Origin: Candidatus Omnitrophota bacterium
GTDB lineage: Bacteria > Omnitrophota > Gorgyraeia > Gygaellales > JBFMHM01
Assembly (NCBI GenBank): GCA_040753015.1
Contig: JBFMHM010000001.1
Location: 8,193 to 72,192, forward strand
Direction: 5' to 3'
DNA: 64,000 nucleotides
Part shown: piece by piece, positions 7,693 through 56,774 of the stretch
Layout of the letters: every line of letters starts with the position of its first letter
How positions within the stretch are numbered: the stretch's first letter is position 1
Notes under the pieces: generated by a model
What the model saw: the letters and a program-made list of their open reading frames with translations, nothing else
The model's database searches: none
What the model was told of the DNA's origin: nothing
Made by a program: the position numbers and the translations under genes

Positions 7693-8648
7693 TCTTAGGC
7701 ATAGAAACATCTTGCGATGAAACCGCAGCAAGCATAGTGAAAAATGGGAAAATCGTTCTTTCAAATAGCGTAAAATCAAGCCTTATTGAACATAAAAAAT
7801 ATGGTGGAGTGATTCCGGAAATTGCATCAAGAATGCATGTAGAAGTTATTGATTACGTGATAAAAGACGCATTAAATATGGCTGGTACAAAATTAGAAGA
7901 TGTTGATTTAATCGCAACGACTTTTGAACCAGGGTTGCCAGGATCGTTGTTAATCGGAACATCATTTGCAAAAGCAATGAGTTTTGCCCTAAATTTAAAA
8001 CTTATTAAGGTAAATCATGTTCATGCGCATCTGTACGCAGCATTTTTAGAAAAACCCAGGCCTAAATTGCCTTCAATAGGGCTTGTAATATCAGGAGGCC
8101 ATTCAAGTATTTTTAAGATTAGCCCTAGTTTTAAATTTCAACTACTTGCTTCAACACAAGACGATGCTATCGGGGAAGCGTTTGATAAAGTGGCAAAAAT
8201 ACTCGGCCTAAGTTATCCCGGTGGGCCGATGATAGAAAAACTTGCAAAATTAGGCGATGAAAATCGCTTTAAATTTATTACATCGAAAAATAGCAATAAA
8301 GATTTTAGCTTCAGCGGAATAAAAACTGCTGTGCTTTATAAAGTAAATGAATTGAAACATAATAAGGTTAATAAAAAATGGCTATGCGATATCGCTGCGT
8401 CTTTCCAAAGAGAAGCTGTTAACATTATCGTAGAAAAAACTATTTTTAATTGCTTATCTAGAAAAATTAACCGTTTAGTTGTTGGCGGCGGCGTAGCAAG
8501 TAATACCTACTTAAGAACAAAATTAAAAGAAAAGGCTGATATGCATAAAATTAAATTACATATCCCTGATAAAAAACTATGCTTAGACAACGCTGCCATG
8601 GTTGCAGGATTAGGTTATCACATATATAAGGAGAGGATAAATAAATGA
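7686..8648 (+). CDS. tsaD: tRNA N6-adenosine threonylcarbamoyltransferase
   Basis: The N-terminus LGIETSCDETAASIV is the Kae1/TsaD signature and metal-binding His residues are present. The gene is 320 aa. Confidence 0.93.
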   Translation: MVVLGIETSCDETAASIVKNGKIVLSNSVKSSLIEHKKYGGVIPEIASRMHVEVIDYVIKDALNMAGTKLEDVDLIATTFEPGLPGSLLIGTSFAKAMSFALNLKLIKVNHVHAHLYAAFLEKPRPKLPSIGLVISGGHSSIFKISPSFKFQLLASTQDDAIGEAFDKVAKILGLSYPGGPMIEKLAKLGDENRFKFITSKNSNKDFSFSGIKTAVLYKVNELKHNKVNKKWLCDIAASFQREAVNIIVEKTIFNCLSRKINRLVVGGGVASNTYLRTKLKEKADMHKIKLHIPDKKLCLDNAAMVAGLGYHIYKERINK

Positions 8649-11259: not shown

Positions 11260-13136
11260 TGATCGAGCGAATTAAAGTAACTTTCTTAGGATATAATAAA
11301 GAAATTTATATAGAAAAAGGCAAATCTATAATGAGTGCGGCTTTATCATGCGGAATTCATCTAAATTCTGTATGCGCAGGAGAAGGAATTTGTGGAAAAT
11401 GTAAAATAAAATTAAGAAGAGGAGAAGTTGATATACAAAATTCTGATGCTATAAGCACTCAAGATTTAAAATACGGCTTTTCCTTAGCCTGCCTAACTTA
11501 CCCAAGAACAAATGTAGTAGTAGAGATACCAAAAAGTTCTCGCATTGAGCCAGTGCTTAGGCAAGAAATTTACTCAAAAGCAAAAACAATAAAACAGGTT
11601 GATTTTAAATCACAAAAGTGCGATTTTAGTTATTTACCAGTTGTAAAAAAAATATATTTAGAACTACCTAAACCAAGCCTAATTGATAATATTAACGACC
11701 TCGACAGAGTATTAAGAGAACTCTCAAAGTATGTAGATATTAATAATATTAAAATTAGCTTAAACAATAGCCGCAATCTATCAAATGTATTGCGTAAAAG
11801 CGATTGGAAAATTACATTAACAATCGGCGAATATAACGAAACATATGAAATATTGAATATCGAACAAGCAGATACGTCAAGTTCAAATTTTGGTTTTGCA
11901 TTTGATATTGGCACAACTACTATTTCGGGAGAACTTATCGATTTAAAAACACAAAAGGTGCTGGGTGCAAAACTAACCTACAATAAACAAGCTAGTTTTG
12001 GTGCGGATGTAATTACAAGAATAGTCCATGCAAAGAATGCTCAGGGGCTTGAAAGATTACATAAAGCAGTAATTGAAGGGATTAATGAAATAATAGAAAA
12101 TTTAATTTCTGAATTTAATATAGATATAAATGATGTTACTTGCTTAACCTGTGCTGGAAATACAACAATGATACATTTACTTATGCGCATTGATCCTAGT
12201 TTTATTAGAAGAGAGCCATATATACCGGCTATAACATTTCTGTCGGCAATAAAAGCTCATGAAATTGGTATACAGATCAGCACGCACGGACTTTTATATA
12301 TTATTGCTGGCATATCAAGTTATCTTGGAGGAGATATCACAAGCGGCATACTTGCAAGCGGCATATACAAAGAACAGAATCCTTGTCTTTTAATCGATAT
12401 TGGAACTAACGGCGAAATTATATTAGGAAATAAAGAATTTTTAATTGGCTGTGCCGCATCTGCTGGGCCTGCATTTGAAGGATCTGGAGTTACATCAGGA
12501 ATGAAAGCAACCAGAGGAGCGATTGAAAAAGTTAAGATTGATAAAAATTTGAATATAACACTTCAAACAATTGATAACGTGAAACCAATTGGTATATGCG
12601 GCTCTGGATACATCAATCTTATAGCAGAAATGCTTAAGGCAAAAATATTGGATAAAAACGGAAAAATATCTATAGTAAAAAATAAACGGGTAAAAAAAAC
12701 AAAGGTGGGATTAGAATTTAAAATCGAAAAAAATATTGTAATTACCGAAGCAGATATAGATAATATTAAACGATCTAAAGCGGCTATTTATGCTGCAATT
12801 ATTACATTACTCGAACATATGCAATTAAATTTTGATTCTATAGATAAAATTTTTATTGCTGGAGGATTTGGTAATTATATCGATATCGAACAAGCGATAA
12901 CTATCGGACTTTTACCTGATATCGACAGAAATAAATTTATATTTATTGGCAACAGTTCTTTGAATGGCGCAAAACAAGCAATCCTATCAAACACAGCATT
13001 TAAAAAAACAAGAGAAATTGCAAAACAAGCAACTTATTTTGAATTATCAACGGATTCTAAGTATATGAATGAATATACCGCTGCTTTGTTTTTTCCGCAT
13101 ACGGATAAAAAACGCTTTCAAACTATAAATATATGA
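11259..13136 (+). CDS. reductive activator of corrinoid Fe-S protein (RACo; 2Fe-2S ferredoxin + ASKHA ATPase, DUF4445)
   Basis: An N-terminal plant-type ferredoxin domain (CGIHLNSVCAGEGICGKCK) is followed by an acetate/sugar kinase-like ATPase fold. At 625 aa it sits between acsC and acsD, as in Wood-Ljungdahl clusters. Confidence 0.8.
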   Translation: MIERIKVTFLGYNKEIYIEKGKSIMSAALSCGIHLNSVCAGEGICGKCKIKLRRGEVDIQNSDAISTQDLKYGFSLACLTYPRTNVVVEIPKSSRIEPVLRQEIYSKAKTIKQVDFKSQKCDFSYLPVVKKIYLELPKPSLIDNINDLDRVLRELSKYVDINNIKISLNNSRNLSNVLRKSDWKITLTIGEYNETYEILNIEQADTSSSNFGFAFDIGTTTISGELIDLKTQKVLGAKLTYNKQASFGADVITRIVHAKNAQGLERLHKAVIEGINEIIENLISEFNIDINDVTCLTCAGNTTMIHLLMRIDPSFIRREPYIPAITFLSAIKAHEIGIQISTHGLLYIIAGISSYLGGDITSGILASGIYKEQNPCLLIDIGTNGEIILGNKEFLIGCAASAGPAFEGSGVTSGMKATRGAIEKVKIDKNLNITLQTIDNVKPIGICGSGYINLIAEMLKAKILDKNGKISIVKNKRVKKTKVGLEFKIEKNIVITEADIDNIKRSKAAIYAAIITLLEHMQLNFDSIDKIFIAGGFGNYIDIEQAITIGLLPDIDRNKFIFIGNSSLNGAKQAILSNTAFKKTREIAKQATYFELSTDSKYMNEYTAALFFPHTDKKRFQTINI

Positions 13137-14026
13137 TATTCGAAACAATTATCGGATCTATTAAAGTTGGCGGAGAGTCAGTTTTACCATTCTTAATTCA
13201 AGAAGGCAAAGTACCTAATAAACCAGTTATTGCTTTCGAAGTATGGGATATGCCTCCTTATGACTTTCCGCAAAGTTTATCTGAACCTTTTGGGAACGCT
13301 TTAAACAACCCATTAGATTGGGCTTTAAAATGCGTTAATGATTATGGAGCAAAATTGCTCTGTATAAAATTACAAAGCATTAATCCTGATACCCTAGATA
13401 AAAATTCTAAAGAAGCAGTCAAATTTATCAATAATCTCATAAAAGCCGTAGATGTGCCATTAATTATTCAAGGATCAGGCAATAAAGAAAAAGATAATTT
13501 AGTTTTGCCAGAGATAGCATCTATTGCAAAAGGAAAAAAATATTTGATTGGATCTGCAACGCAAGACAATTATAAGATATTAGCAAAAACATGTATAGAT
13601 AATAACCACTCAATAATTGCTGAATCGCCCATTGATATAAATATTGCCAAACAACTTAATATTCTTTTAAGCGATGCCGGTGTCGAACCAAGTCGAATCG
13701 TAATCAATCCAACTGTAGGATCTTTAGGGTATGGCCTCGAATACGCGTATTCAATTATGGAAAGGGCGCGATTAGCTGCGCTGGCAGGCGATACCATGCT
13801 TGCACAAAGCTTTATTTGTTTTGCAGGCCAAGAAGCATGGCGGGCAAAAGAAGCAAAGGCAAAAATGTCAGAAATGCCTGCATGGGGTGATGAAAAAAAA
13901 CGTGGCCTCCTATGGGAAATAATTACAGCTATTAGTTTCCTGCAATCTGGTGCTGATATTTTAGTTATGCGCCATCCCAAGGCAATAAAAGCAGTAGAAA
14001 ACTACCTTAACGACCTATTACCGTAA
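13133..14026 (+). CDS. acsD: corrinoid iron-sulfur protein small subunit (CODH/ACS delta subunit)
   Basis: This is a 297-aa TIM-barrel protein in the acsC-RACo-acsD-acsE order. Its sequence (GGESVLPF, EAWRAKEA...WGD) resembles CdhD/AcsD. Confidence 0.7.
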   Translation: MIFETIIGSIKVGGESVLPFLIQEGKVPNKPVIAFEVWDMPPYDFPQSLSEPFGNALNNPLDWALKCVNDYGAKLLCIKLQSINPDTLDKNSKEAVKFINNLIKAVDVPLIIQGSGNKEKDNLVLPEIASIAKGKKYLIGSATQDNYKILAKTCIDNNHSIIAESPIDINIAKQLNILLSDAGVEPSRIVINPTVGSLGYGLEYAYSIMERARLAALAGDTMLAQSFICFAGQEAWRAKEAKAKMSEMPAWGDEKKRGLLWEIITAISFLQSGADILVMRHPKAIKAVENYLNDLLP

Positions 14027-34297: not shown

Positions 34298-37200
34298 ATG
34301 ATTAAACGTATATTTATCTTATTATTGGTAGGGATTTTTTGTTTTAACCACTTATGTTATGGTTTTCAAAACATAAGTGCCTCGAAGCGCGTAACACTTT
34401 CGGGGCCAACATTATTAGGCATTGATTTAAATGGTAGAGACGCGCTGCAGTGCGTCTCTACGGGTATCCAATTCAATCTAAACATCCCCAAAGGCACTAT
34501 TCTTAATCTAGACCAACGTAACAACCTTAAAACCAACATAAACTACTTTCTAACAGCTCTAACCATACAAGACTCTGAATTCTGGGTTAACCTAAACCCA
34601 AACCAGCCTAACAGGCTTACAGGAACAAATATTGCCTACACAGACATGGGCAAGCATCTATTACTCCTAGACCTAAAGCTTAAGAAAGACACAACCTTTG
34701 CATTGTTTCCCGGATTATCACAAGGAGCCACAACATACTGGGAACGTGTGTTTGCTAAAGCTAAAGCTTTAGCAAAATCAAATATCAAATATCAAAAATC
34801 AAATATACAAACTAAAAATCAAAAAGAAGAACAAAACCGAAGAACCGAAGAACTGACGAACAGTCGAACTGTCTCTATCCCCACAACCTTCCGTGTCTGG
34901 ATAGTTCCAGACAAGGCAGAAGTATACGAAGATGGCAAAGGTAGCTGTGTAATAACCAAATCAACATTGAAAGTGTTACTGGAAAGTGAGTATCTACAAC
35001 TCCCCCAGACCCCCTCTTTACCAAAGAGGGGGATAAAGGGGGAGTTTGATAACAACCAAGAGTTACAATCCTACTGTGAATCGCAGCTAAAAGAACTAAT
35101 ACTTCCTAACCTAACACATAAAGTAAACCATGATCCAAGCTACGAGCCACTAAGACAGATATACAATGCAATTATTCTTGCGAAGTGGTTTAAAGCCAAT
35201 GCTTTAAACAGCAAGAATAATAATTACCAATTACCAAATCCCAATGTCAAATCAATTACTAATGACCAATCAACCAATAAAAACCAATTCGAACAGATCA
35301 TTAATTCTAATAATTTAAAGGGGTTAATATCTAAGGATCCAATAACAAAAGAACAAATCTTTGCTGCCTACTTAGACTCAGTAAAACAAGGCGAATACCA
35401 TCTTACCAAGACTAACTACAATGAAGAGCTGAAGGCTAATATTAGGAGAAGTTATGTGAGCGGGGGAGCAGAGTTTACAGCTATAGCTTTAACAGTTGAC
35501 CCAACTGCGACAAGCAAGGCAGGTGCACTTGCAACAGATAATTTAGGAGCAGCAGTTACATTAACAGATAGTCAAAATCAATCAATAAATGTAGCTATAA
35601 AAACTGATTTTGATAGTTCTAACGCAATGGATGTAACTAGTCGAGTAGAGCCGCGATTAATCGCGTCTCTACAAGGTGATATTAAAATATTTGTTTGTCC
35701 ATCTTTAAGTCAATTTGATAACCAAGATAATTTTTCTCTCATTGCTCACGCAGGCAGGGGTGGAGTAAGGGTAGTAGATGGAGTTACCCATAAGCATACC
35801 TTGCGTCAAATATATCTATCCCCTAAACAATTTGAGCTTGTGCAAGGCTTAACCCAAGAAGCCAAAGAACAATTCTGGAAACATGAAATAGCACATCTTG
35901 AACATCCGGAGATGAGCGAAGAAGAGGTGCAAGCGGTTGCGCCGACGGATAAGGTAAGGGAAGAACTCATTGATCCTGATTTAAGAAAATTACTAGAAGC
36001 AGAAAAGGTTCTAAGCATAGAAGAAATAGATCTTTCCGAAGCCTACGTATATGCTGCTGATGACATTGCAGCTATTGCTCAAAACAAACCCGAGCTTGCC
36101 GATAAAGCTCTTGCCGTCTTAGAAAACATCCTAATAAAAACCATCCTAATCCTAAACAGAGAAGAATTAGATCTTTGCGAAGCCTACGTATATGCTGCTA
36201 ATGCCATTGCAGTTATTGCTCAAAACAAACCCGAGCTTATCCGTGAAAGTACCCTCGCTGTTTTAAAAAACATCTTAAACAGCGAAAAATTACATACTTC
36301 CGCCTACGTATATGCTGCTAATGCCATTGCAGCTTACTATGCAAAAGTAAATAAACCTATCCCAGCGGCAGCGCTAAAGGCCCTTCGTCTTCGCTACATA
36401 CGGTTTACCGATCGTGGCATTAGTTTTCATGATGCATCTGCCTTTGCCGAAGGTTTACTTAAAACAGCTTCTCCAGTAACTCTTAAGCCTTTACCCGAGG
36501 CTCTGCCCAAGAAAGAAGCTATAGATTTAAACAGTATCCCTAAACAAGATAACCTCGATGATTTGTTAAAAGATTATACTTTTGTCCGCGCTCAAGGAAG
36601 AACATTAATCTACAAACACAAAACAACAGGTAAATTCTTAGCCTTAAAGCTACTTAAAAAAGATGAAAGTCCAGCAGAACTTACTCATGAAAGCAATATG
36701 TTCGAATACTTTAACAAACATAGGCAAACATTGGGATTACAATCAATCTTTCCTATGTCTATGGTTCTTAACTCTGAGGGTGATAAAGTGTTAAGTGTGG
36801 TTAATTTGCCTCGAGATGCATTAGCTGATTTATCTGTTTCGGTTGAAAAAACAAAGCAATGCTATACAGTTATGGCATATACTACAACTAGCTTTGATTA
36901 CTTTACGTATCTTGATGATCCTGTTTTAAGTAAAGAAGAATTTAATCAAGCAACTGAAAAATCTGTACATGACTTATTTGCTCTCGCAAGTTACGGAATT
37001 ATTCATACTGCATTACTAAGTATTTTTCATACCGTAGAGCAGGATAAAGATAGGCAAGATGCGGGTAAGTATATTTGGATGACAAGTATAATTAGAAAGT
37101 TGACTACAGGTACAGGTAGACTAGAAAATTGGTTAATTGCTGCAAAATACCCTAATTTAAGGCGATCCGGCTTAGCTGATCTAGCTGACATAACTACTCT

Positions 37201-40200
37201 TGATGAATTAATAACTGATCCAAACCATCTTGGAAGCATTCATTTATCCGAAGCAAGAGAATTCTATAATAATCAAGAAGTATTAAAACGCGTATTTCTT
37301 GCAAATTACATAGGAGATTATCTATTGACCTTTGCTTTAATTACAGGTTCGCGATTACATAAACGCAATGAATTTAATTGGCAAGACCCAGAACAATTAG
37401 CCAAGTTTATGCAGGAATTATTTACTCAAGCATTTACTGTAAGTAGATCCCAAGAACAAGCCAATACTGTAGCTAAAGCAATTGACTGGGCTCGTCTTGC
37501 CAGACAAATGAGCTATTTTATGTCAGGGGCGTATGTAGCTGATTTTAGCCCAAAAAACCCACACAGAAATATTCCAGTTGGAATGTTTGAAGGCGAAGAA
37601 ATTTGCTCACTAGGTTCTTTTGACGAAAGTCTTTGGTCAGAAGTTTTTGGTTGGACAAGCCTTGTCCAAGATAATCCTGAAGATAATCCATCAGCGCTTG
37701 GCCCCTTTAACGGCCCTTTTCCATTAACTGAACTGGTTAAAGCATTGTATGTTTATGCAAGCTTACTTGCTACAGATACACAGACTACAGAAGAACAAAC
37801 TGCTGACACCACCATTGCCTCAACAGGCGAGAAGGGTGCAACGCGAGCTGAACACGAGGTATATCATAAACAAGGTAAATTTGAAGAAGTAATTACTGAT
37901 ATTGCTAAAAAAATTGAAGCAGAAAAAAGAGCTGATGGTAAATATGACTTACGCGCTAAAGTTCAAGAAAAAGGTGGTAGTATTCAAAAAATATTTAGCC
38001 AATTACGCATTGAAAATGATGGAATACTTGTAATTATTGACATTCGTTTTCATAGAGACCATGCCGGCAGAAACGAATTCGCGGTCTATGCCCGAAGTGA
38101 AGCTAAAGCTCAACACGAGCTAAGTGAATTACGCGACTGGCGAGATTTTGCAATTGAACAAAACATTGCCACTTTAGAAGATATACAACAAGGCTTACTT
38201 GGAACTAAACTAAGAGAATGGATGAATGATGGAGCCATTCAAGATGCAGAACGCGCCCATCGCAAAAGCTTAATTGAAGAAAAAAGCAAAGCCTTTCATA
38301 GAAAAGCACTTGAGATTGAGGTAAAATCTGATTTCGAAGATATCGAAGAGCCAGGTTACAAAGCTGTTACATTTATCCTTCCAGAAGCGACAGATGGCCA
38401 AGGTGATTTTATGGATTTACTTTCTACGGCAAGGGTATTTCAAAAATCAAATCCTACTAAAAAAGTAAGAATAGCGCTAGAAAGAGCCTCTGCTTATAAA
38501 AAACTTACTAAATTGTTTCCTGATTTTGATCCAGAAAAAATTAGCAATACAGTAGATGACATAGTAGTAATTAATGCTGAACAAGACCCAACTTTTATAG
38601 ATAGCCTTTTGTGTAATAAAGTAAGTATTATTCTTTTATCAGCAGATAAATCACCACCGGCTTTAGGTTTATCAGCAGTTAATATTTATCTGGAAGAACC
38701 TGGTGCTTCAAAAAGAATATATCTGCCGACTAATTTAAAACGCGGAGAAGTTTATAAAGATAAACAAGGGCGCTTACATATTGTTTATACCACTGGTTTT
38801 AGCACAGATTCTTTAGGTATGGTTATAGATAAAACTTTAAAACAAAAGATGCAAACTGCAGGTAACTCAAAGCAAAACCTATTACATTCTTTAGCTCAAG
38901 AAAAACCCGGCCTTCAATTACCAGCTGATACCATAGATTCCAAATGGGGATTTGTTTATTATAATAGTTCTCATGTTGAAGTTGTTTATAGTAGTTTTGG
39001 ATATTTTTCTTTTTTATATCAAGCGTTAAAAAATGGGAATATTGATAAAGGACAAAAAATTACAATATTTGACTTTAGCGATACCGTTGATTCCTGTGAT
39101 GGAGTGCGTAACTATGATGCTTATAAAGCTTTTACCCATATTTTTCCTGACGGCAAGATAATAGTGGGAGAAAAATTTCCTAATGTTAGAGTTGTTCATG
39201 TCTCTATGGCATCACATAATTTATTCTTGAGATTTATGTATATGGCAGAGCTGCCTATATTAGTTACAGGTACAAGAAGTTTAACAGAGGCAATCGAATT
39301 AGGCAAACCCTTTGTTTATGACTTAATGAATTGGAAAGTCGGCCTTGTGCAGGGCATGGTTGAGCAGGCAATTCGTCATATGCCTTTGGACCAAGCATTA
39401 ATAATCGCGGCTTGTTTAAATGGCTACCCTGCAATAGACGAACAAGAAAAATATACGAGATTACTTACATTATACAGACAATTAAGAACGCAAATCCCAC
39501 TTGTAAAGTCACCCGATGATATAGGTTTAGTGCTAAATCAATTTGCAGAAAATAATGGGTTAGATAGGAATAAATTTGGCTATGCATTTTGGGAACCTCT
39601 TAAAAGTGTTACCGGCCCCGAAATAACTGAAGAAGAATTAGTTGCATTAAAAATTTGTTGGATTATGCTAGGTGGTTTAAGAAGCATTCACTTAAAACAT
39701 AGTCCCAGGATTTTATATGATTCTATTTATCAAGAAGCATTTAGAGCTTTGACAGAAGTATTAGCAAATTTACCTGCGTTAGAGGATAATTTAGCGCAGC
39801 AAATAACTACATTAGTTGATGCTTATAACCAAGATGAGCAAGAGGCACTTAGAATTTTACGAACAAATGTTGATGCCGCTGTTGGCCAAAAAGAAGACGA
39901 AATTGACTTTATTATCTCAAGTGATGGAGGCGTAGCTGATAAAGATGTTTCGTTGCTTCCTCCCAAGTACGACGGAGAGCGATTTAGCCCGCAGACTATC
40001 TATGATTTTGGCGCAGGTTTATCTCCTCTAGAAAGACAGCACTTAAGGCGAAGCTTGGTTAGGTTAACGGCTCAACTAAGAAATAAGGATGTAGCCGTGC
40101 GAACTCAAGCAGTAACTGCTTTGATAAATCTTTTCGCCAATGAATTTGGGCTTTTTTCAAGAGGTATTCTTCAACAGGCATATCAGAATCAAGAACAATT

Positions 40201-43200
40201 AACTAATCTTTTTATACTTATGCGCCCTCTTTTAGAAAATACTCTCTTAAATGGAAGCGAAGCAGATGATGCCTATCAAAACTTAGCTAATCAACTTGCT
40301 AATCCAACCACTGGTTCTAGTCAAGAAACTATCCTAAGGACTGCCAATAACCTTGGTTGGAATTTAATCTTTATTAATGATAGGCCAATATTTGTTTTAA
40401 CTGATGAAGCGCATAATTACGCCACATCAACTGCTTCAGATGAGGTGCGCCTTGTTAATCTTTTGCCAGAAGGAATAGTTTTATCAAATGCACGTCCAGT
40501 ACAGGCAAGTGAGGTTACGCAACCTGATGTTAGCGCACCAGTAGTTTCGCAGCCAGTGCAATTACCACAGCCACAGCAGCCAACTACTGCTTTAGTTGTA
40601 CCTAACCAAGTACAAGGAGTACTTGTTAAACCGCGTACAATTGCCGGAGTAATTGCTAAGTTTAAGCCTATAAATTATCAACCAACACTAAACAGGCCGC
40701 TTATTCAAAGAATTGCAATACTTATTAACGAAGGCGATTATAACCAAGCAGCTACGCTTATCCAAAACAACCATACAAGAGCACAAGCGCAGGCACTCTT
40801 AACCGAGCTTTTAATTGCACACCCAGGTCCGCAAACATTCGAGTTACTAGCTTATTTAGATATAGGTCTAGCAACAGATAGTTTTATGCAGGCATTTGCT
40901 ACAACTAATGGCGAACTAAATTTAGAACGCATAAACAATATTATATTTATGCTCTCACTCATACAAAGAGACAGAATTTATCTTTGGCAAGCGCAGTCGG
41001 ATTTACGTTCCGCTGGAACGCTTAGGGAGAGCCTGCCATTTTCTTGTTTTATTCTTGCCAGAATGAGCCAAGAGAGGGAATATCAGCCATTTGTTGCAAG
41101 AATGAGAAGGCTTATTGATGATATTGTGCCACTTGGAACAGTTGCTGGGTTAAACCGCATAGAAACATTACTTAAAATTGTTAATGATTTAGCACCAGAA
41201 GCTCTAGTTGCACAAGAACAAACATATTCCTTCGCAAGAAGCATTGATGAAATTGATGAAATTGTTGCTAGCTTAAATAGCGCAGGAGATGATTTAAGCG
41301 CTGTTTCAGATTATTGTATTCTAGGTCGTTCGCCAACCAATGTACTTCGTGCGGTTAAAAAATATGCAGCAGCCAAGATTCTTCCCTGGCGAGCAGTTTT
41401 AGTTAGATTACTTTCAGCGCAATCACCAGAAGCTATTGCAACATTTATTGCTGTGCTTGACCAGCAGCAAACAGCTTGGTATCGAAATGATTTAGGCGAT
41501 GAATTAGAAAGAGTAGAGTTTTTCTCTACCTTGCTTGCAGAAATTGACAGAGAACTTGCCATAAACACTATAGACGTGCTTGTTACTGACCAAATACTTT
41601 ATCATCAAGACTCACGCAGATTAGCAGAGCGTATTCTTCTTGGCCCGGCAATTGAAGCAATAGATGCAATGGTTGCAATACACACTGAACTTTGCAAAAG
41701 AGATAGCCGTTATAATACAGAGTTTGAATTCCAGCTAACCGGTGTGTTACTTGCTGAAGACTTGACTAAAGGCCAAAGACAGCAAGCAGTTAAAAGATGT
41801 GCTCAAATCATCGAAACTACTGATGATAATTGGCATAAACTAAAAGCTGACTTCCGTGTACTTATTGCAATGCGTACCGACTCAGGTCAAGCCCGCAAAG
41901 ATGCAATCGCTGAGTTGGGGAGGTTAGGCACACCCGATGCTGTGGATGTGTTGCTTGGGCTACTAATACAAAGGAGCATACCTAGATATAGTTTACTAAA
42001 AGCATTGGCTAGGGGTTTAACTGTGGACCGAAAAACAGATGAGGATAAAATTTTTCAAGACGGTCTTAAAACAATTCATTCAGGTAGATATATTAAAGAA
42101 GCTATAAATGCGCTCTCTCAGTTAGCACGAACAGATTTGGATAGTTTTACAGCGCCTCAAGTATTTTTTATTAAATGGCTTGGTATGTATCTGAATTATC
42201 AGAATATAAATGGCGCTTATCTTCCAAATGATTCGGATAGGGTTGGCATTGTTAATATTTATATTATTCTAGGATTCCGCGGGCATAGTTATGCAGTATC
42301 AAAGTTTATTCAAGAGTGTGAGGGATATGATAAACTTCCTGATCTTCCACGAGATGATTTAAGGGGATGGTTTAATCCAGAAATCGAACAATGGGTTGTT
42401 TGGCGAAGAGATTTAATTGAAAAATTAGCTGATCCTAGATTAGATCAAGCTAATTGGCAATTTGAACAAAACCAATTTTTTCTTCTTCTAGAAGCAATTG
42501 GCGTGCCAAAAGAAGTTTCACGTAATATACGTCAACTATGTATTAGTGAAGATAAAAATGAAACAATAGCTGCAATCCAAGCCCTTGGCGAAAGTAAGCA
42601 TTCCGCTTCTGTTGAATTGCTCATCGATTGTTGTTTACCAATTGAACAACGTTCTATGTCTATTACTCACTTGAAATATAGAGATAAAGATGGCCGAAGA
42701 GGTCTTGACAACGATATTTGTCAAGCCGCGATTATAGCATTAGGTAAAATCGCTGACCCTCGCGCAGTTGAGCCTTTGATTGAATGTTTGAAGGATACGA
42801 ACAAATATGTTCGTCGCAACGCTGTCGAAGCTCTTGCTAAAATTGGCATGCCGGCATTGCCTGCATTAGAAGCAACTTTACGCCGTCCAGAGTATAATAA
42901 AGTTATTGCTGAAATACAAAGAATAATTGATCGTATTCGCGCTAAAAATCCTAGCATAACCGAGCATCAATTTTTCGCTCCGGTTTTATCGTCCGCTTTA
43001 AAACAAGAACTTATCGCTAAATTAAATGGCTCGGATTTATTAGATGCCCCTATTGCTGAACGGACAAAGCAAGTAATTAGAATATTAACTAGCGATAAAT
43101 ATTATGATGAGCAATCATTTAACTTGCTCATTGCCGCTTTAAATGAAATTAAAGCTGGAATACGCATTAACTTAGAAGGCCTGCATATTGCCGGTGATTA

Positions 43201-43405
43201 TAAAGAAATATTAGAGCTAGTGCTTAAGCCGCTTACCGATGACCTTGCCGCGGCTAATGCAAGCGATCCAAATACAACATTAGAAGGAATGGAAGTATTA
43301 GCCAAAGCACAATCTGTATCGTCTAAAGGGCAAGGCGCAAAAACCGCGCCTGTTACAACCGGCGGCATTGACCTATCGCAAATACAGATTACGATGATTG
43401 GATAA
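34298..43405 (+). CDS. giant secreted multidomain protein (3035 aa) with HEAT/PBS-lyase-type repeats
   Basis: An uninterrupted 9.1-kb ORF with an N-terminal signal peptide ([22 protein letters not shown]). HEAT_2/PBS-type repeats lie near aa 570-680 ([20 protein letters not shown] x3). More lie in the C-terminal part ([40 protein letters not shown]). A Pro/Gln-rich linker is present. I could not assign the central domains. Confidence 0.8.
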   Translation: [3035 protein letters not shown]

Positions 43406-44854: not shown

Positions 44855-45151
44855 GAAGCAGGGCCGATAAAGGCAAACCACGAGAAATCGTGGGACATCA
44901 TAATGTAACAGTAAACGTCAATTAAACATTATGATCTCGAAATATAGCTTGTAAGTAAAAAATTAAGCTATAATCGAGGCAAAGCCGCAAGCCTAAATTG
45001 TTTAAGGAAGCAAGTCAGGCTTAAACAACAAGGTGGTTGGGTTGCCAAAGAGCGCCAGAACAGATCGAGGTGAGGAGAAGCAAAAATAGCGCCTCCTTAT
45101 CGGCCATTATTTATGATATAATAATCCCGAACATTAATTCGGGATTTTTTT
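44855..45151 (+). ncRNA. candidate structured non-coding RNA of about 295 nt, class unknown
   Basis: No ORF of 60 aa or more exists in 400 bp. The 5' GGCCGATAAAGG pairs with the 3' CCTCCTTATCGGCC. Internal hairpins include CCACGA-gaaa-TCGTGG, ATCATAATGT...ACATTATGAT, TATAGCTT...AAGCTATA and TTGTTTAAG-13nt-CTTAAACAA. The 3' end is a strong intrinsic terminator ATCCCGAA-cattaa-TTCGGGAT plus T7 (45124-45151). Confidence 0.45.
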
Positions 45152-48270: not shown

Positions 48271-49572
48271 ATGAAAATAGTTTTTATTGAACCTGCTGCC
48301 TCAAAAGCAAATGTTTATAGCAAATTACATATGCCTCTTTTAGGCCCTTTATACTTAGGAACAATTCTTAAAAATCTAGGGCACGAGGTTACAGTTTACA
48401 ATGAAAATATATATAAACCAGACTATTCTAAGATAAACGCTGATATTATAGGAATTTCTATTTTAACCTCAACAGCAAAACGCGGTTACGATATTGCTAC
48501 GTTATTTCCAAAAGAAAAAGTAATAATTGGTGGCGTGCATGCCAGCCTTTTACCTGAAGAAGCATTACGATTTGCCAGACAAGTAGTTATCGGTGAAGCC
48601 GAAAGTATAATTGCTAAAGTAATAGACGGTTCAATCAAAGATAAAGTTGTACAAGGTGTAGCTATCCAAAATTTAGACGAACTGCCATTTCCAGATTTTT
48701 CTTTGATTAAAGGCTATAAACCAAAACCAATCATTATGCCCATATCTAGTTCGCGAGGATGCCCCTTTGATTGCACATTCTGCTCTGTAACAAAAATATT
48801 CGGCAGGGCATACCGTTTTCGCAGCGCTGAAAACATCCTTAAGGAATTAAAATCAAGGGATGCAAAATCGTTCTTTTTTTGTGATGATAATTTTACGGCT
48901 AACCCAGAACGCACACGTATTTTATGTGAACTTATGTTAAAACACAAAACCCCGCGCTGGACAGCTCAAGTTCGTTGCGATGCAACCAAAAATGATTCAC
49001 TTTTAGGCCTTATGGCAAAAAGTGGATGCAGTGTCGTCTGCGTAGGGTTTGAATCAATTAATGTTAAAACTCTTTCTGCCTTCGAGAAAAAACAAAGCGT
49101 TAACGACATAATTAGCGCGATTCGTTCTTTCCATAGAAAAAAAATTAAAATTCACGGAATGTTTGTTTTAGGTAGCGATAGCGATGATGAAAAGACTGTA
49201 TGGGAAACTCTCAAATTTGCAATAAAGGAAAAAATTGACACTATTCAAATGATGATCTTAACGCCTTTTCCGGGAACTAAGGTTCACGAAGAGTTAAATA
49301 AGGAAAAACGGATATTTAACCGCGACTGGAGCTTATACGACGCCCAACATGCTGTATTCAATCCAAAATTAATATCGGCAAAACAATTACAAATAGCATC
49401 GCTTAAGGCACATGCAAAATTTTATTCTTTTTCTTCATCTTTATGTTTACTCCTTAAGCTGAATTTTCGCAATGCATTTTTTCGTTTTATGGGGTATAGA
49501 ATTGTTAAAGAATGGATAAGATGCAATTGTAAAATGCAATGGCTGTTACAAGTTTCACCAAAAATGAGTTAA
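48271..49572 (+). CDS. B12-binding domain radical SAM protein
   Basis: An N-terminal cobalamin-binding-like Rossmann domain is followed by the CxxxCxxC motif (SSRGCPFDCTFCSV) and a radical SAM core. Substrate unknown. Confidence 0.75.
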   Translation: MKIVFIEPAASKANVYSKLHMPLLGPLYLGTILKNLGHEVTVYNENIYKPDYSKINADIIGISILTSTAKRGYDIATLFPKEKVIIGGVHASLLPEEALRFARQVVIGEAESIIAKVIDGSIKDKVVQGVAIQNLDELPFPDFSLIKGYKPKPIIMPISSSRGCPFDCTFCSVTKIFGRAYRFRSAENILKELKSRDAKSFFFCDDNFTANPERTRILCELMLKHKTPRWTAQVRCDATKNDSLLGLMAKSGCSVVCVGFESINVKTLSAFEKKQSVNDIISAIRSFHRKKIKIHGMFVLGSDSDDEKTVWETLKFAIKEKIDTIQMMILTPFPGTKVHEELNKEKRIFNRDWSLYDAQHAVFNPKLISAKQLQIASLKAHAKFYSFSSSLCLLLKLNFRNAFFRFMGYRIVKEWIRCNCKMQWLLQVSPKMS

Positions 49573-49737
49573 AATGAAACATATTAAAGTTTCGCACAAG
49601 GGAAGAAAATGCAGATACCGTAATTGCACAAATATTCTAAGCATTTACAACCACGAAAACTACTGCCATGTCCATATCTCAATAATTAACGATAGAATTC
49701 CCGTTAAAACTCCCAAAACAAAATAAAAATTTTTTTC

Positions 49738-51793: not shown

Positions 51794-51918
51794 GGCTGCA
51801 AGTTTAAATCTGATAAGATTTAAACTGTTATGCAGGTTACACTGAACCGTGATTTTTACGGGGCAGTGTTAAGTCATAGCGAAAATCAACCCCGCCTCTA
51901 AACAGAGGCGGGGTTTTT
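51794..51918 (+). ncRNA. structured RNA element, copy A of a tandem pair, ending in intrinsic terminator (CCCCGCCTCT-aaac-AGAGGCGGGG-TTTTT)
   Basis: It is paralogous to copy B. P1 is CTGCA/TGCAG, the P2 hairpin is GTTTAAATC-tgataa-GATTTAAAC, and the motif GGTTACACTGAACCGT is conserved. Confidence 0.45.
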
Positions 51919-51973
51919 ATTTGCTTGCAATGTCTATTATCCCGAATTTTGCAATAGCAAAATTCGCCCCTGA

Positions 51974-52109
51974 GGGCCGCAAGATTAAATCTCGTCGAGA
52001 TTTAATCTGTTCTGCGGGTTACCCTGGACCGTCAGCGAAGCGCTTTGACTGGTTCGGTGGTTAATACAAAAAAACCAACCCCATCTCTAGAAATAGGGAT
52101 GGGGTTTTT
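51974..52109 (+). ncRNA. structured RNA element, copy B of the tandem pair, ending in intrinsic terminator (CCCCATCTCTAG-aaa-TAGGGATGGGG-TTTTT)
   Basis: P1 is CCGCA/TGCGG and P2 is AGATTAAATCTC-gtcga-GAGATTTAATCT. Both are compensatory relative to copy A. The conserved motif is GGTTACCCTGGACCGT. Confidence 0.45.
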
Positions 52110-52138
52110 CTTTACCAACATTCTACCCAAAAATTTTC

Positions 52139-52167
52139 TTGACACCTGTATAAACATACAGTATTAT
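52139..52167 (+). promoter_or_regulatory. promoter TTGACA-17-TATTAT with LexA (SOS) box CTGTATAAACATACAG in the spacer (52146-52161)
   Basis: This is the gamma-proteobacterial-type CTGT-N8-ACAG palindrome, flanked by A...TA. It overlaps the promoter of the gene encoding a LexA domain, which is the classic autoregulatory layout. Confidence 0.7.
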
Positions 52168-52174
52168 AACGTTC

Positions 52175-53680
52175 ATGATACGCCAAAGAAAAAAAAATAT
52201 AAAACTTACTAAACGTCAGGAACAAATTTTTAATTTTATTGTTAAAAACATAAAAAACTTCGGTTTCCCGCCTTCTATTTCAGAGTTTCAAAAAAAATTC
52301 TCTTTTAAATCACCTAATGCCGTTCAAAGCCATCTCAATAGCCTAGAAAAAAAAGGTTTTATTTCTCGACATCCGCATAAATCACGCGCTATAGAAATTT
52401 TAATTAATCAAAAAACGATGCTAAATAACTCTAATTCTACAATGGATATCCCCATTGTTGGCCGTGTTGCGGCCGGCGCGCCAATCATAGCCGAAGAAAA
52501 TATCGAAGGAACGCTCGCGGTCGATAAAACGCTTGTTAAAGATCCAAATAAAACTTTTGCTTTACAGGTAAGAGGCGACAGTATGATTAATGCAGGAATC
52601 CTGAATAATGACTTTGTAGTTGTCCAACAACAATCTACTGCGGATGAGGGTGAAATCGTCGTTGCTCTTATTGGCGAAGAAGCCACAGTAAAAAGATTTT
52701 ATAAAGAAAAAGATTGCATTAAATTAATTGCCGAAAATGAGAATTTTGCGCCAATAATAATAACGCCAAAAGATAATGATATTCAAATATTGGGAAAAGT
52801 AAAAGGTGTTATAAGGAAATTTAAAACAGATAACACCATCGCACCAATTAAACAAGCTGCACGCTCGCCTAACAAAGAAAAGAGCGATGTCTTTTTTAAA
52901 TCAGAAAACATAAAAATTTTGAATAATGATATACTTAACACTGAAAATATTTTACCATCTAGTGTTGATTTAATAATTACCTCTCCGCCATATAATCTTG
53001 ATATTAAATATGGTGCTCATGACGACAAACTGTCTTATGAAGAATACCTCAAATTTAGTAAAGAGTGGATGGCTAGATGTTTTGAGCTTGCCAAAGACGA
53101 TGGACGCTTTTGTTTAAATATCCCGCTTGATAAAAATAAGAACGGACAACAAAGCGTTTGCGCTGATATTACATCAATTGCAAAACATATAGGCTGGCAT
53201 TATCATTCTACGATAATTTGGAATGAAGGTAATATTTCTAGACGTACAGCATGGGGTTCATGGCTTAGCGCTTCAGCCCCCTATGTCATTGCGCCTGTTG
53301 AAGTAATTGTAGTTTTTTATAAAAAATTTTGGAAAAAACAAAAACCAGGAAAATCTGATATAACAAAAGAAGAATTTATGGAATGGACTAATGGTGTTTG
53401 GTCTTTTAACGGCGAAAGCAAAAAAAGAATAGGGCACCCTGCGCCATTCCCTGTGGAGCTGCCAAAAAGATGTATTAAACTCTTTAGCTATACTACTGAT
53501 ACCATCTTAGATCCATTTCTAGGGAGCGGATCAACTTTACTAGCTTGTATTAAAGAAAAAAGGGGCGGCATAGGCGTAGATATAGATAGACAATATTGTG
53601 ATTTAGCAAAAAGAAGGATAATGAATTATAATGCCCAGTGTAATTTTAACTTTAAGGAGACAGTATGTCAGGAGAAATAG
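52175..53680 (+). CDS. LexA repressor (wHTH + S24 autopeptidase) fused in-frame to a beta-class DNA methyltransferase (N4-cytosine/N6-adenine type)
   Basis: Residues 1-216 are a complete LexA. The DNA-binding domain is FPPSISEFQKKFSFKSPNAVQSHLNSLEKKGFI, the cleavage site is VAA-GAP, and the catalytic Ser and Lys are at GDSM and VKRF with E. coli-like spacing. Residues 260-501 are an MTase with motif IV (SPPY) preceding motif I (DPFLGSGST). There is no stop codon or separate start between the two parts. Confidence 0.8.
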   Translation: MIRQRKKNIKLTKRQEQIFNFIVKNIKNFGFPPSISEFQKKFSFKSPNAVQSHLNSLEKKGFISRHPHKSRAIEILINQKTMLNNSNSTMDIPIVGRVAAGAPIIAEENIEGTLAVDKTLVKDPNKTFALQVRGDSMINAGILNNDFVVVQQQSTADEGEIVVALIGEEATVKRFYKEKDCIKLIAENENFAPIIITPKDNDIQILGKVKGVIRKFKTDNTIAPIKQAARSPNKEKSDVFFKSENIKILNNDILNTENILPSSVDLIITSPPYNLDIKYGAHDDKLSYEEYLKFSKEWMARCFELAKDDGRFCLNIPLDKNKNGQQSVCADITSIAKHIGWHYHSTIIWNEGNISRRTAWGSWLSASAPYVIAPVEVIVVFYKKFWKKQKPGKSDITKEEFMEWTNGVWSFNGESKKRIGHPAPFPVELPKRCIKLFSYTTDTILDPFLGSGSTLLACIKEKRGGIGVDIDRQYCDLAKRRIMNYNAQCNFNFKETVCQEK

Positions 53681-54263: not shown

Positions 54264-54896
54264 ATGGGTATTTTATATCTTGATTTGTTATTAATAATAA
54301 TCGGGATCTCTGCATTGTTGGGAGAAAATAAGATTGATAAAATTGGAACTTTTTTCTATTTAATGTTTATATTCGGTTTTTTCTTTACTCTCGGGGAAGC
54401 TTTAACAAAAATTGTTACAAGAAAAGACTATAATTTGTGGATGATATTTTTTATTTTTACCTTTTTTATAATTATAAATTTTAGGCAAGTTAAAAACTTT
54501 ACCACTTTCGTTGTTTGTAGTAAGATAATAACGTTAAATTACGATTTAGAAACAGAAGAATTTAAAAATAATAAGAAAATAAAAATAGCTACTCCCGAAG
54601 GCAGGTGTATTATTGCTAAAGAAAATGGACTGTATCGCATATATTTGCCTCGAAAGATTGTAGATGTAAATCTTTTTTATACTTCTTATGATGCTAACGG
54701 AATACACAAAGGTCGTATTTTATGGATTAAGGATGTGGATTTTACATTTAAAGATAGGTATATAGAATCATATCACGTTTTAAACGAAAGTGCTAATAAT
54801 GGAAAAGGAAGGCATCTAATAAAATATTACTATCGGTTGAATATTTTTGAGCTTTTAAAAAAATCCAGTAGTTTTTGGAGAAGCTATTTAGAATAA
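54264..54896 (+). CDS. hypothetical membrane protein (3 N-terminal TM helices + soluble C-terminal domain)
   Basis: Hydrophobicity only. No motifs. Confidence 0.4.
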   Translation: MGILYLDLLLIIIGISALLGENKIDKIGTFFYLMFIFGFFFTLGEALTKIVTRKDYNLWMIFFIFTFFIIINFRQVKNFTTFVVCSKIITLNYDLETEEFKNNKKIKIATPEGRCIIAKENGLYRIYLPRKIVDVNLFYTSYDANGIHKGRILWIKDVDFTFKDRYIESYHVLNESANNGKGRHLIKYYYRLNIFELLKKSSSFWRSYLE

Positions 54897-54948
54897 TCCC
54901 AGACCATAATCAGAATTCCGAAGACACAGCAGTTAATTAACCCTTAAA

Positions 54949-56088
54949 ATGAAAAAGCTCTTGGCAATTTTTGCACTAATCCTCACGATAACAACAAACT
55001 CTTTCGCCTCGGAAATTTGGTATCAGGCTCGGGTAAGAGATGCGAGTGATCGGAGTTATGAGAAAGAAGTTATTGCGCTACTTGATTCTGCCAAACAATC
55101 AATTACAATCTCAATGTACGTCATCAAACCGCATGAAATAAAAAACCACCCAGTAAATCTTCTGCTTAATGATCTTTTAGAGGCTAGAGGCCGAGGGGTT
55201 GAAGTAAATATCTACCTAAATGCCAGGTTTAACAATGTCTTAGAATCTGGCGATATTACGCGTAATCCTATTTATGCCACACTAGAACAAAAAGGCGCAA
55301 AAATATACTTTGTATCAAGCGCAACCATGCTTCACGATAAACTTATTATCATTGACGAGCGCTACATCGTAGAAGGTAGCACAAATTGGAGCGTTGCCGC
55401 TCTAAAAAATAATCTTGAATCAGCAACAATCATAGATTCACCTGAGCTTGCCAAAAGAAAATTATCTAGAATCAGCCAATTACCGTTAGAAGGCCAAGCA
55501 AAGCCAACCACCAAAGAAGAAAAGCCAATAGTTGCCAATTTACCACCAGAAATAGAAATAAAAGCTTGCCTTATTACCGATAAAAACTTTTTCTCTAAAA
55601 TGGTGAGAAACCGAGACGAACATACAATTGATCTATATCTTTATTTAATTGGGTTATCACAAGCCTATAACTCAAATGAATTCTTTATAGATCTTGAAAC
55701 AATACCACTCGATATTTCGCTTCCTAAAAAATGGCCCGAAACTGCTAAACGCCGCCAAATCATAAAATTATTAAAGAAGCTTTCGAAAAACTATCATCTT
55801 ATACAAGTAGAATTTTATCCCGCTAAAGATAGCTGGGTAAAATTAATAAACTTACCTGGCGAATCATTTCTTATCCCCAATACTTATTTTACTGAAGTTT
55901 ATATTAATCGCTTTAGCGCAAAAGCTCAACTGCTCATCCTGACAGATTTTCTTTTAAAGAAAGAGGGAAAAAGTATTTATTCTACATCTCTAGCTGATCT
56001 TAGCCGACTCCTTAACCTTAACCCCAAGATAATCTCCAAGGCGTTGTCAGAAGTAAAAAACTACACAGAGAATCAAAGAATTGACTAA
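54949..56088 (+). CDS. secreted phospholipase-D-superfamily (single HKD motif, Nuc-like) protein with uncharacterised C-terminal domain
   Basis: A signal peptide MKKLLAIFALILTITTNSFA is followed by the HKD motif region LHDKLIIIDERYIVEGSTNWS. Confidence 0.65.
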   Translation: MKKLLAIFALILTITTNSFASEIWYQARVRDASDRSYEKEVIALLDSAKQSITISMYVIKPHEIKNHPVNLLLNDLLEARGRGVEVNIYLNARFNNVLESGDITRNPIYATLEQKGAKIYFVSSATMLHDKLIIIDERYIVEGSTNWSVAALKNNLESATIIDSPELAKRKLSRISQLPLEGQAKPTTKEEKPIVANLPPEIEIKACLITDKNFFSKMVRNRDEHTIDLYLYLIGLSQAYNSNEFFIDLETIPLDISLPKKWPETAKRRQIIKLLKKLSKNYHLIQVEFYPAKDSWVKLINLPGESFLIPNTYFTEVYINRFSAKAQLLILTDFLLKKEGKSIYSTSLADLSRLLNLNPKIISKALSEVKNYTENQRID

Positions 56089-56115
56089 AATTAAAAAAAG
56101 CTTATAATTAAACTA

Positions 56116-56601
56116 ATGTTAGATTATTTAGGCATATTTAAAGAATTAAACAAAAGAAAAATAAAGTATATTGTCGTAGGGGGAATGGCAATAAACCTAT
56201 ATGGCATCCCACGAATGACCTATGACTTAGATTTCATACTTTTACTCGAAAATAACAATATTAAAAAATTTATTACTTTAATGAAAAAATGGGGCTTTAA
56301 ACCAAAAGTGCCCGTAAATATAATGGATTTTTCAAATAAAGACAAAAGAAATGACTGGATAAAGAATAAAAATATGAAGGCCTTCAATCTAGTAAATCTG
56401 AATTGGGGAATTGCAGAAATTGACATAATTATCGATAGCCCAGTTAATTACGAAAAAGCTTATAAGAACATTAAATACATATCCTTACGGAATACACAGA
56501 TTCCAACTATAGGCATAGACGATCTTATCAAAATGAAGCATAAAACCGGAAGAAAACAAGATTTAGCCGATGTCAAAACTTTAATGAAATTGAAAAGATG
56601 A
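56116..56601 (+). CDS. minimal nucleotidyltransferase-fold protein (AbiEii/DUF-type NTase)
   Basis: The sequence YIVVGGMAINLYGIPRMTYDLDFIL has the GG...G..R.T.DLD nucleotidyltransferase signature. Confidence 0.45.
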   Translation: MLDYLGIFKELNKRKIKYIVVGGMAINLYGIPRMTYDLDFILLLENNNIKKFITLMKKWGFKPKVPVNIMDFSNKDKRNDWIKNKNMKAFNLVNLNWGIAEIDIIIDSPVNYEKAYKNIKYISLRNTQIPTIGIDDLIKMKHKTGRKQDLADVKTLMKLKR

Positions 56602-56774
56602 AACCTAAGACTAACGGATTCGAATATTATTTAACTAAAGATCAAATCAAACGATACAGCGCTATGCCTTTAGAAAATAGGTTGGCATGGCTTTATCAGG
56701 CAAACCTCTTAAGAAAATACTATCCTAAAAAAATCATAAGATTGCAAAATTTATTCCGCGAAGGAAAAATTTAA
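56598..56774 (+). CDS. small ORF (58 aa) translationally coupled (ATGA overlap) to the NTase gene; possible partner protein
   Basis: I translate it as MKPKTNGFEYYLTKDQIKRYSAMPLENRLAWLYQANLLRKYYPKKIIRLQNLFREGKI. There is no family assignment. Confidence 0.25.
   Translation: MKPKTNGFEYYLTKDQIKRYSAMPLENRLAWLYQANLLRKYYPKKIIRLQNLFREGKI

Follow-up and report, generated by a model that had tools for sequence, protein, structure and literature searches.

A predicted LexA operator fills the promoter spacer of a LexA–methyltransferase fusion operon in Omnitrophota and recurs ahead of restriction-modification genes

Introduction

Known controls of restriction-modification (RM) systems include C proteins, self-repressing methyltransferases, antisense RNA and proteolysis. 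Leaderless transcripts occur for some C genes, and in the SsoII, EcoRII and CfrBI systems it is the methyltransferase that regulates its own promoter. Elsewhere in bacterial defence, CapH/CapP of CBASS provides a defence-adjacent repressor that is relieved by a DNA-damage or single-stranded-DNA signal. The WYL-domain proteins BrxR and CapW of BREX and defence islands are likewise DNA-damage-responsive defence repressors (PMC9122601, PMC9122589). The general scheme of C-protein control has been reviewed (PMC3874152): proteins such as C.PvuII, C.AhdI and C.Esp1396I, of the Xre helix-turn-helix type, are encoded first in their operons, where they activate and repress at C-boxes, palindromic operators in their own promoter, and set the levels of methyltransferase and nuclease. 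In M.SsoII-type self-repression, as covered by the references gathered in that review, the methyltransferase acts through an N-terminal DNA-binding region (PMC3874152).

LexA proteins of Escherichia coli and other Gammaproteobacteria recognise an SOS box with the consensus CTGT-N8-ACAG (PMC8565304). A 2013 review of RM regulation mentions LexA only for toxin-antitoxin systems (PMC3874152), the word LexA is absent from a 2025 review of RM biology (PMC12707154), and the searchable full-text literature contained no description of LexA-led RM operons or of LexA-methyltransferase fusions, an absence that does not amount to proof of novelty.

Here we describe an operon in a 64-kb stretch of an Omnitrophota contig (hereafter the window, meaning the whole stretch of DNA analysed) in which a gene for a LexA-methyltransferase fusion (lexA::M) is followed by an HNH nuclease gene. 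As judged from sequence, the locus is one of a large set of lexA-led RM operons in Omnitrophota and in relatives labelled as Atribacteria or Elusimicrobiota.

Results

A SOS-box-like sequence is the promoter spacer

The window contains a single exact CTGT-N8-ACAG, CTGTATAAACATACAG, directly upstream of lexA::M (Table 1). It lies between hexamers that match the promoter consensus at 11 of 12 positions, the top site of the region in a promoter scan. The spacer is 17 nt long and consists entirely of the 16-nt box and a single preceding C at position 52145, so that the consensus SOS box between −35 and −10 reported in the initial annotation is borne out. Its description as a 16-bp palindrome needs correction: the consensus match is perfect, but only the 6-bp arms (CTGTAT/ATACAG) are inverted and the centre, AAAC, is non-palindromic. 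Scored with a position weight matrix (PWM) for the LexA clade described below, the box reached 19.0 bits, and no other site in the window that lies outside an open reading frame (ORF) scored 12 bits or more. The start codon of lexA::M follows 7 nt after the −10 hexamer, the same distance as in two related loci (L030 and L129), and from this distance we infer that the mRNA is probably leaderless.

Shuffled versions of the window held a mean of 0.29 exact CTGT-N8-ACAG matches, with at least one match in 29 of 100 shuffles, and with one mismatch allowed the window contained 13 matches compared with 10.2 expected. Because a single exact match in 64 kb is insignificant alone, we built the case on comparative data.

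Table 1 Features of the lexA::M locus (positions in the window)
Feature	Position	Strand	Basis
Terminator-like hairpin, 13-bp stem and T run	52077-52106	+	Terminator scan, RNA fold
−35 hexamer TTGACA	52139-52144	+	Promoter scan; present in every box-bearing relative listed
Predicted LexA operator CTGTATAAACATACAG	52146-52161	.	Motif, position, conservation
−10 hexamer TATTAT	52162-52167	+	Promoter scan
lexA::M fusion gene, 501 aa (ATG at 52175)	52175-53680	+	Pfam, NCBIfam, PADLOC
LexA DNA-binding domain (LexA_DNA_bind, PF01726), aa 10-72	52202-52390	+	Pfam, E 3e-23
Peptidase_S24 (PF00717), with Ser136 and Lys173, aa 93-209	52451-52801	+	Pfam
Predicted cleavage site Ala100-Gly101	52472-52477	+	Alignment with LexA proteins
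Linker of ~45 aa between S24 peptidase and methyltransferase domains			
N6_N4 methyltransferase (PF01555), full length, aa 264-479	52964-53611	+	Pfam, E 2e-47
SPPY motif, aa 270-273	52982-52993	+	Inside the methyltransferase domain
HNH nuclease gene, 194 aa	53665-54249	+	Pfam HNH and HNH_5

The promoter-operator design recurs across a LexA clade

The closest fusion, P0001 in L030, comes from an independent sample; it is 79% identical to the window protein, has the same 501-aa architecture and the same HNH gene behind it. Among free-standing LexA proteins the closest is P0121 in L129, at 74% identity. The 16-mer is identical in the window and both of these loci, and in a three-way alignment a 30-nt block, CTTGACACCTGTATAAACATACAGTAT-ATA, was invariant. 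The −35, box and −10 are thus constant among the three, whereas the flanks diverge, as do the 7 nt preceding the ATG, and the sequence 5' of the −35 could not be aligned.

To widen the comparison, we searched metagenomes with a LexA alignment, which gave 80 loci, and added two Omnitrophota-type genome loci. Source names on clade members include Omnitrophica, Atribacteria and Elusimicrobiota. The 75 loci with at least 100 nt of upstream sequence served as the denominator for box counts; the metagenomic loci are partly redundant and were picked by similarity to the window LexA. An exact CTGT-N8-ACAG was present in 45 of the 75, lying 37-71 nt ahead of where the LexA match begins and in each case the sole exact match of the locus, and a further 21 carried the variant CTGT-N8-ATAG. 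The remaining nine either encode the most distant LexA proteins or are without the design. All 66 box-bearing loci have TTGACA-N, the box and then a −10-like hexamer beginning with TA (TATNNT in nearly all), giving a shared design of TTGACA-N-CTGT-N8-A(C/T)AG-TATNNT. This recurrence excludes chance and points to the box as the operator for autoregulation in this LexA clade. The clade's recognition helix, SPNAVQSHL, resembles SPNAAEEHL of E. coli LexA, which offers a protein-level reason for the common motif. The motif had initially been considered unexpected for this genome; it instead appears to be the normal operator of a large LexA clade that spans Omnitrophota and Atribacteria- or Elusimicrobiota-labelled proteins.

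A scan of viral contigs for TTGACANCTGTN8AYAGTAT returned 38 matches, none of them followed by lexA; these look like chance matches or unrelated phage promoters, and carriage of the cassette by phages is accordingly unsupported.

The fusion joins a complete LexA to a methyltransferase

The fusion protein scored 229.9 bits against the NCBIfam lexA equivalog TIGR00498 (cutoff 110.95) and 317.8 bits against the PADLOC MTase_II model. Aligned to 23 free-standing LexA proteins, its LexA half reaches their natural C-terminus (...GKVKGVIRKF). The residues A100, G101, S136 and K173 were invariant in 24 clade members and in 93 aligned fusion-length proteins, all of which also keep the SPPY motif. The closest solved relatives of the LexA part are LexA repressors, including DNA-bound entries, with which it has the SPNA..HL helix in common; those of the methyltransferase are N4C and N6A DNA methyltransferases. 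The SPPY motif is typical of N4-cytosine enzymes. With a winged helix-turn-helix, an S24 domain, the Ala-Gly site and the Ser/Lys dyad, the protein is, by all its sequence features, a genuine LexA, and it has the residues required for RecA-stimulated self-cleavage. The LexA-autoregulation layout that had been proposed for the promoter thus gains support from both sides: the design is kept in 66 of 75 related lexA loci, and the protein passes the LexA equivalog with its cleavage and catalytic residues intact.

The HNH gene begins 16 nt before the end of the fusion gene. Its product gave weak matches to PADLOC REase_II (E 4e-6) and is presumed to be the restriction component. The same HNH gene stands behind the methyltransferase gene in L030, in two CPR loci (L031 and L033) and in L128, where the pair is unfused; an HNH gene thus occurs with this methyltransferase family in four independent contexts.

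The independent orthologue P0001 shares this architecture, and we therefore rejected the possibility that a frameshift in sequencing had produced the fusion. Two promoter-like sites, each matching at 10 of 12 positions, lie near the gene junction, one just before the HNH start (53603-53632, + strand) and one across the methyltransferase/HNH junction (53671-53643, − strand). These could provide LexA-independent or antisense control of the nuclease.

Changing RM genes follow a constant lexA

A tblastn census of the 3 kb following lexA detected a same-strand RM homologue in 59 of 67 clade loci and in none of 20 control lexA loci from other phyla, where unrelated RM genes could be missed because the queries were the clade's own proteins. 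The genes after lexA encode a D12, N6_N4 or C5 methyltransferase, a RadC-D12 fusion, or a TdeIII, AlwI or Eco57I-type enzyme, and in 35 loci no more than 40 nt separate lexA from its downstream neighbour. In L001 and L002, for example, a D12 methyltransferase gene begins 12-15 nt after lexA and is followed by genes for a large nuclease and a second methyltransferase. In L129, lexA overlaps an N6_N4 methyltransferase gene that precedes a BsaWI-like nuclease gene, and both this RM system and the genes upstream differ from those of the window.

The partners change even between close relatives of LexA. Grouped at 95% identity, the LexA proteins formed 54 clusters, which paired with RM types in 42 distinct combinations, and one cluster of 19 loci, at least 95% identical in LexA, included five RM types. 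LexA pairs of at least 90% identity had similar upstream flanks in only 24 of 60 cases and similar downstream flanks in 50 of 169. With lexA and its promoter-operator constant and the RM cassettes and contexts changing, the unit behaves as a conserved leader module.

Several loci had features of their own. The RadC (JAB domain)-D12 adenine methyltransferase fusion lies directly after lexA in L086 (3465-5297) and L078 (1572-3395). In L121 (10001-17886), lexA, D12 and N6_N4 methyltransferase genes and unknown genes precede an AAA_15 ATPase, helix-turn-helix genes, a tyrosine integrase and AbiEii; the cassette adjoins dnaA-dnaN-gyrBA, with an intein within gyrA, and may be situated on an integrative island.

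The same methyltransferase was fused to LexA more than once

LexA-methyltransferase fusions are also encoded by CPR/Patescibacteria. These have the same three-part LexA-methyltransferase-HNH layout, drawn from the same families, with 65-68% identity in the methyltransferase and 56% in the HNH protein, and with the same invariant catalytic residues, but differ in the recognition helix (SVSTAHFH...) and in a distant LexA half. The window LexA half shares 60-74% identity with free-standing LexA proteins compared with 31-42% with the LexA halves of CPR fusions, and the methyltransferase half shares 72-77% with free-standing enzymes compared with 64-70% with the CPR counterparts. Likewise, the window HNH protein is 80% identical to that of the unfused methyltransferase-HNH pair in L128 and 56% identical to that of L033. 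A neighbour-joining tree placed the window methyltransferase and P0001 among 26-28 free-standing enzymes, apart from the CPR fusion clade. Together, the three sets of identities and the tree indicate that the methyltransferase-HNH system was fused to LexA at least twice, independently. In the lineage of the window, the stop codon that separated lexA from the methyltransferase gene has been lost. Repeated fusion of LexA to the same system argues that the arrangement has been selected.

No CTGT-N8-ACAG was present upstream of the fusions in the CPR loci examined, and a search for a CPR fusion operator in the few loci available gave one candidate palindrome (L031) and no consensus. This palindrome, AGCATGC-N10-GCATGCT at 7965-7990, lies over a −10, and a HinfI-like nuclease fragment is found downstream in the same locus. 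In L033 (8001-10026), the fusion adjoins nrdD-nrdG. CPR/Patescibacteria encode many such fusions (P0002-P0066), which carry no annotation beyond 'LexA', 'transcriptional repressor LexA' or 'methyltransferase'.

Housekeeping repressor or dedicated controller

We consider it likely that the box is a LexA operator through which the lexA::M-HNH operon represses itself and is switched on by RecA-stimulated self-cleavage. That the box serves the RM operon, and that this LexA is perhaps not the housekeeping SOS repressor, is suggested by the sequence context and is the view we tentatively favour.

The strongest competing explanation is ordinary housekeeping SOS autoregulation, in which this would be the sole cellular LexA, controlling a normal repair regulon, and RM cassettes would have been inserted or fused downstream and ride on its promoter. 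The two overlap, as the box would still be a LexA operator and only the meaning of the RM link would differ. A housekeeping role is in keeping with a full-length LexA that exceeds the equivalog cutoff and has its catalytic apparatus intact, with the chromosomal flanks of the window (groESL, rpsU, uvrB and valS), and with L116-L120, where lexA has a uracil-DNA glycosylase gene on one side and a PolX gene on the other, a setting consistent with a lexA native to the chromosome. This last context was shared among the relatives only by L039, of the same contig type.

Against it, as initially noted, uvrB (45208) is without the box: its best upstream PWM score is −10.8 bits, compared with at least 17.8 for real sites, and uvrA in the relative L100 likewise has no box-like site (2.7 bits). 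The PWM scan of 625 kb of relatives' flanks found no other site of at least 12 bits, and the only second site above this threshold in the window was CTGTATAAAATTACAA (13360-13375, 12.1 bits), inside an ORF (13133-14026) and probably due to chance, with 0.36 such matches expected per shuffle. The absence of sites from ~690 kb nevertheless weighs little against a housekeeping role, as we estimate that a small regulon would give about two sites there; a signature-peptide search of the loci (recA, uvrA, ruvB, dinB etc.) found only the L100 uvrA and the recA of one control locus.

The RM linkage also speaks against it. RM genes come after lexA in 59 of 67 loci and in none of the 20 controls, and the flanks that vary among LexA proteins at least 90% identical are unlike those of a fixed housekeeping locus. 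L129 illustrates this, having an identical operator and a 74%-identical LexA, yet a different RM system and different upstream genes. Taking both sides, we regard the housekeeping explanation as possible but rather unlikely.

Far less probable is that the palindrome is a site for something other than LexA, either the RM system's own recognition or regulatory site, acting as a methylation-sensitive switch, or the site of another regulator. Some methyltransferases do control their own promoters by binding or methylation (PMC3874152). However, the box precedes lexA together with unrelated RM types (D12, N6_N4 and C5 methyltransferases; TdeIII, AlwI and BsaWI-like enzymes), so that the only constant partner is LexA, and the CPR fusions, with the same methyltransferase-HNH family and another LexA helix, are without it in the loci examined. 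Finally, a chance AT-rich inverted repeat in an AT-rich intergenic region, conceivable from the 29 of 100 shuffles with a match, can be set aside as wholly improbable for a box that occupies precisely the spacer of the top promoter match, just ahead of lexA, is invariant in close relatives and holds the same position in 66 of 75 related loci.

Discussion

The features of the locus suggest how the LexA operator could control the lexA::M-HNH operon, with binding, repression and RecA-dependent induction modelled on the established LexA mechanism. From the near-consensus sigma-70 promoter, a transcript would be made for the fusion and for the translationally coupled HNH nuclease, the putative restriction enzyme. 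A LexA dimer, formed via the S24 domain, would bind the operator in the spacer and, given its position there, block RNA polymerase. The methyltransferase would thus itself be the repressor of the RM operon, limiting its own synthesis and that of the nuclease: the promoter would be fully active upon entry into a naive cell, and the accumulating fusion would close the operon down to a maintenance level. RecA on single-stranded DNA, produced by DNA damage or perhaps by replicating phage, would promote self-cleavage between Ala100 and Gly101, which would free the DNA-binding domain from the S24-methyltransferase part and derepress both genes.

Autoregulation of lexA in E. coli is the nearest known counterpart. 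The two have in common the consensus, an operator overlapping the lexA promoter, the domains, the Ala-Gly and Ser/Lys residues and a similar recognition helix, and because the operator fits the SOS consensus of E. coli, it may well be recognised by the LexA of that species. The window differs in its Omnitrophota host, in a single operator that exactly fills the spacer, in a probably leaderless mRNA, and in a repressor that is fused to a methyltransferase and predicted to be co-transcribed with a nuclease. It also differs in that no box-bearing repair gene has so far been found in the window or the relatives' loci.

Among RM systems, C-protein control is similar in having the regulator first in the operon and a palindromic operator in its own promoter by which methyltransferase and nuclease levels are set. 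C proteins have an Xre-type helix-turn-helix and both activate and repress, whereas the window LexA has a winged helix-turn-helix and S24 self-cleavage; Pfam found no Xre-type domain in the window operon, and the resemblance is functional, not homologous. Because the regulator is a LexA with a self-cleaving S24 domain, a DNA-damage input via RecA would be added. In M.SsoII/M.Ecl18kI, M.EcoRII and M.ScrFIA, as in the fusion, the methyltransferase polypeptide carries the repressor and repression tracks its concentration. These are C5 enzymes with a short helix-turn-helix and no known cleavage switch, whereas the window protein has a complete, predictedly cleavable LexA on an SPPY beta-class N4/N6 methyltransferase, which makes the two analogous, not homologous. 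CapH/CapP and BrxR/CapW follow a similar logic of a dedicated repressor but differ in protein family and sensing, which here would be by the RecA filament acting on LexA.

A broader proposal, for which we see the case as evenly balanced, is that lexA with its promoter-operator forms a portable cassette that acts as a dedicated, RecA-boosted RM controller and was twice fused to the SPPY-methyltransferase/HNH system, in Omnitrophota and in CPR. If so, RM systems would be held low by LexA and raised by RecA during DNA damage or phage replication, and many 'LexA' genes in these groups would be defence regulators, instead of or besides SOS masters. RM regulation would gain a DNA-damage input through RecA, built on a simple promoter in which the operator is the spacer and which was reused before at least six kinds of RM gene, together with convergent fusion of LexA to one methyltransferase family. 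Predictions of SOS regulons for Omnitrophota, their Atribacteria- and Elusimicrobiota-labelled relatives and CPR may mislead if the 'LexA' genes they start from are RM-linked.

Other features of the window

All substantial ORFs of the 64 kb are on the + strand, and the longer minus-strand ORFs overlap + strand genes. Upstream of lexA::M lie groES-groEL and then two structured elements, built alike and in tandem (51795-51925 and 51966-52112), between the groEL stop and the lexA promoter. Each combines two hairpins, the first of them AT-rich, with a GC-rich intrinsic terminator, and their folding z-scores are −9.8 and −7.5, respectively. In an Rfam search, every match to these elements was far under threshold; they may encode small RNAs or represent a terminator module that was duplicated. 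The terminator-like hairpin in Table 1 is the 3' end of the second element and would insulate the lexA promoter against read-through from groEL.

No + strand terminator was predicted between 52106 and 57200. After the HNH gene, the region 54264-56774 encodes a hydrophobic 210-aa ORF that is not conserved in L030, the orthologous locus. Next come a PLD/DrmC/NucT-like nuclease that is much extended at its C-terminus and a DUF6036/AbiEii-like nucleotidyltransferase, which has a partner ORF of 58 aa; rpsU follows. Together, these genes make up a small defence-like island between groESL and rpsU. When the region around 51.7-57.2 kb was searched for flanking repeats, direct or inverted, and for att-like sequences, only AT-rich chance matches turned up.

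Upstream of uvrB, the segment 44862-45049 matched the c-di-GMP-I riboswitch with 32.9 bits, compared with an Rfam gathering threshold of 35 bits (E 9e-5), and contains a large insertion. A promoter-like TTGAAA...TATATT precedes it and a terminator-like hairpin lies at ~45127-45150, and the element may be a divergent riboswitch or a small RNA ahead of uvrB. Pfam detected only C-terminal HEAT repeats (aa 2806-2872) in a 3035-aa ORF at 34298-43405. Lastly, a B12-binding radical SAM enzyme (48271-49572) is followed 2 nt on by a Cys/His-rich 50-aa ORF without a family match (49574-49726), and the two could be a peptide-modification pair.
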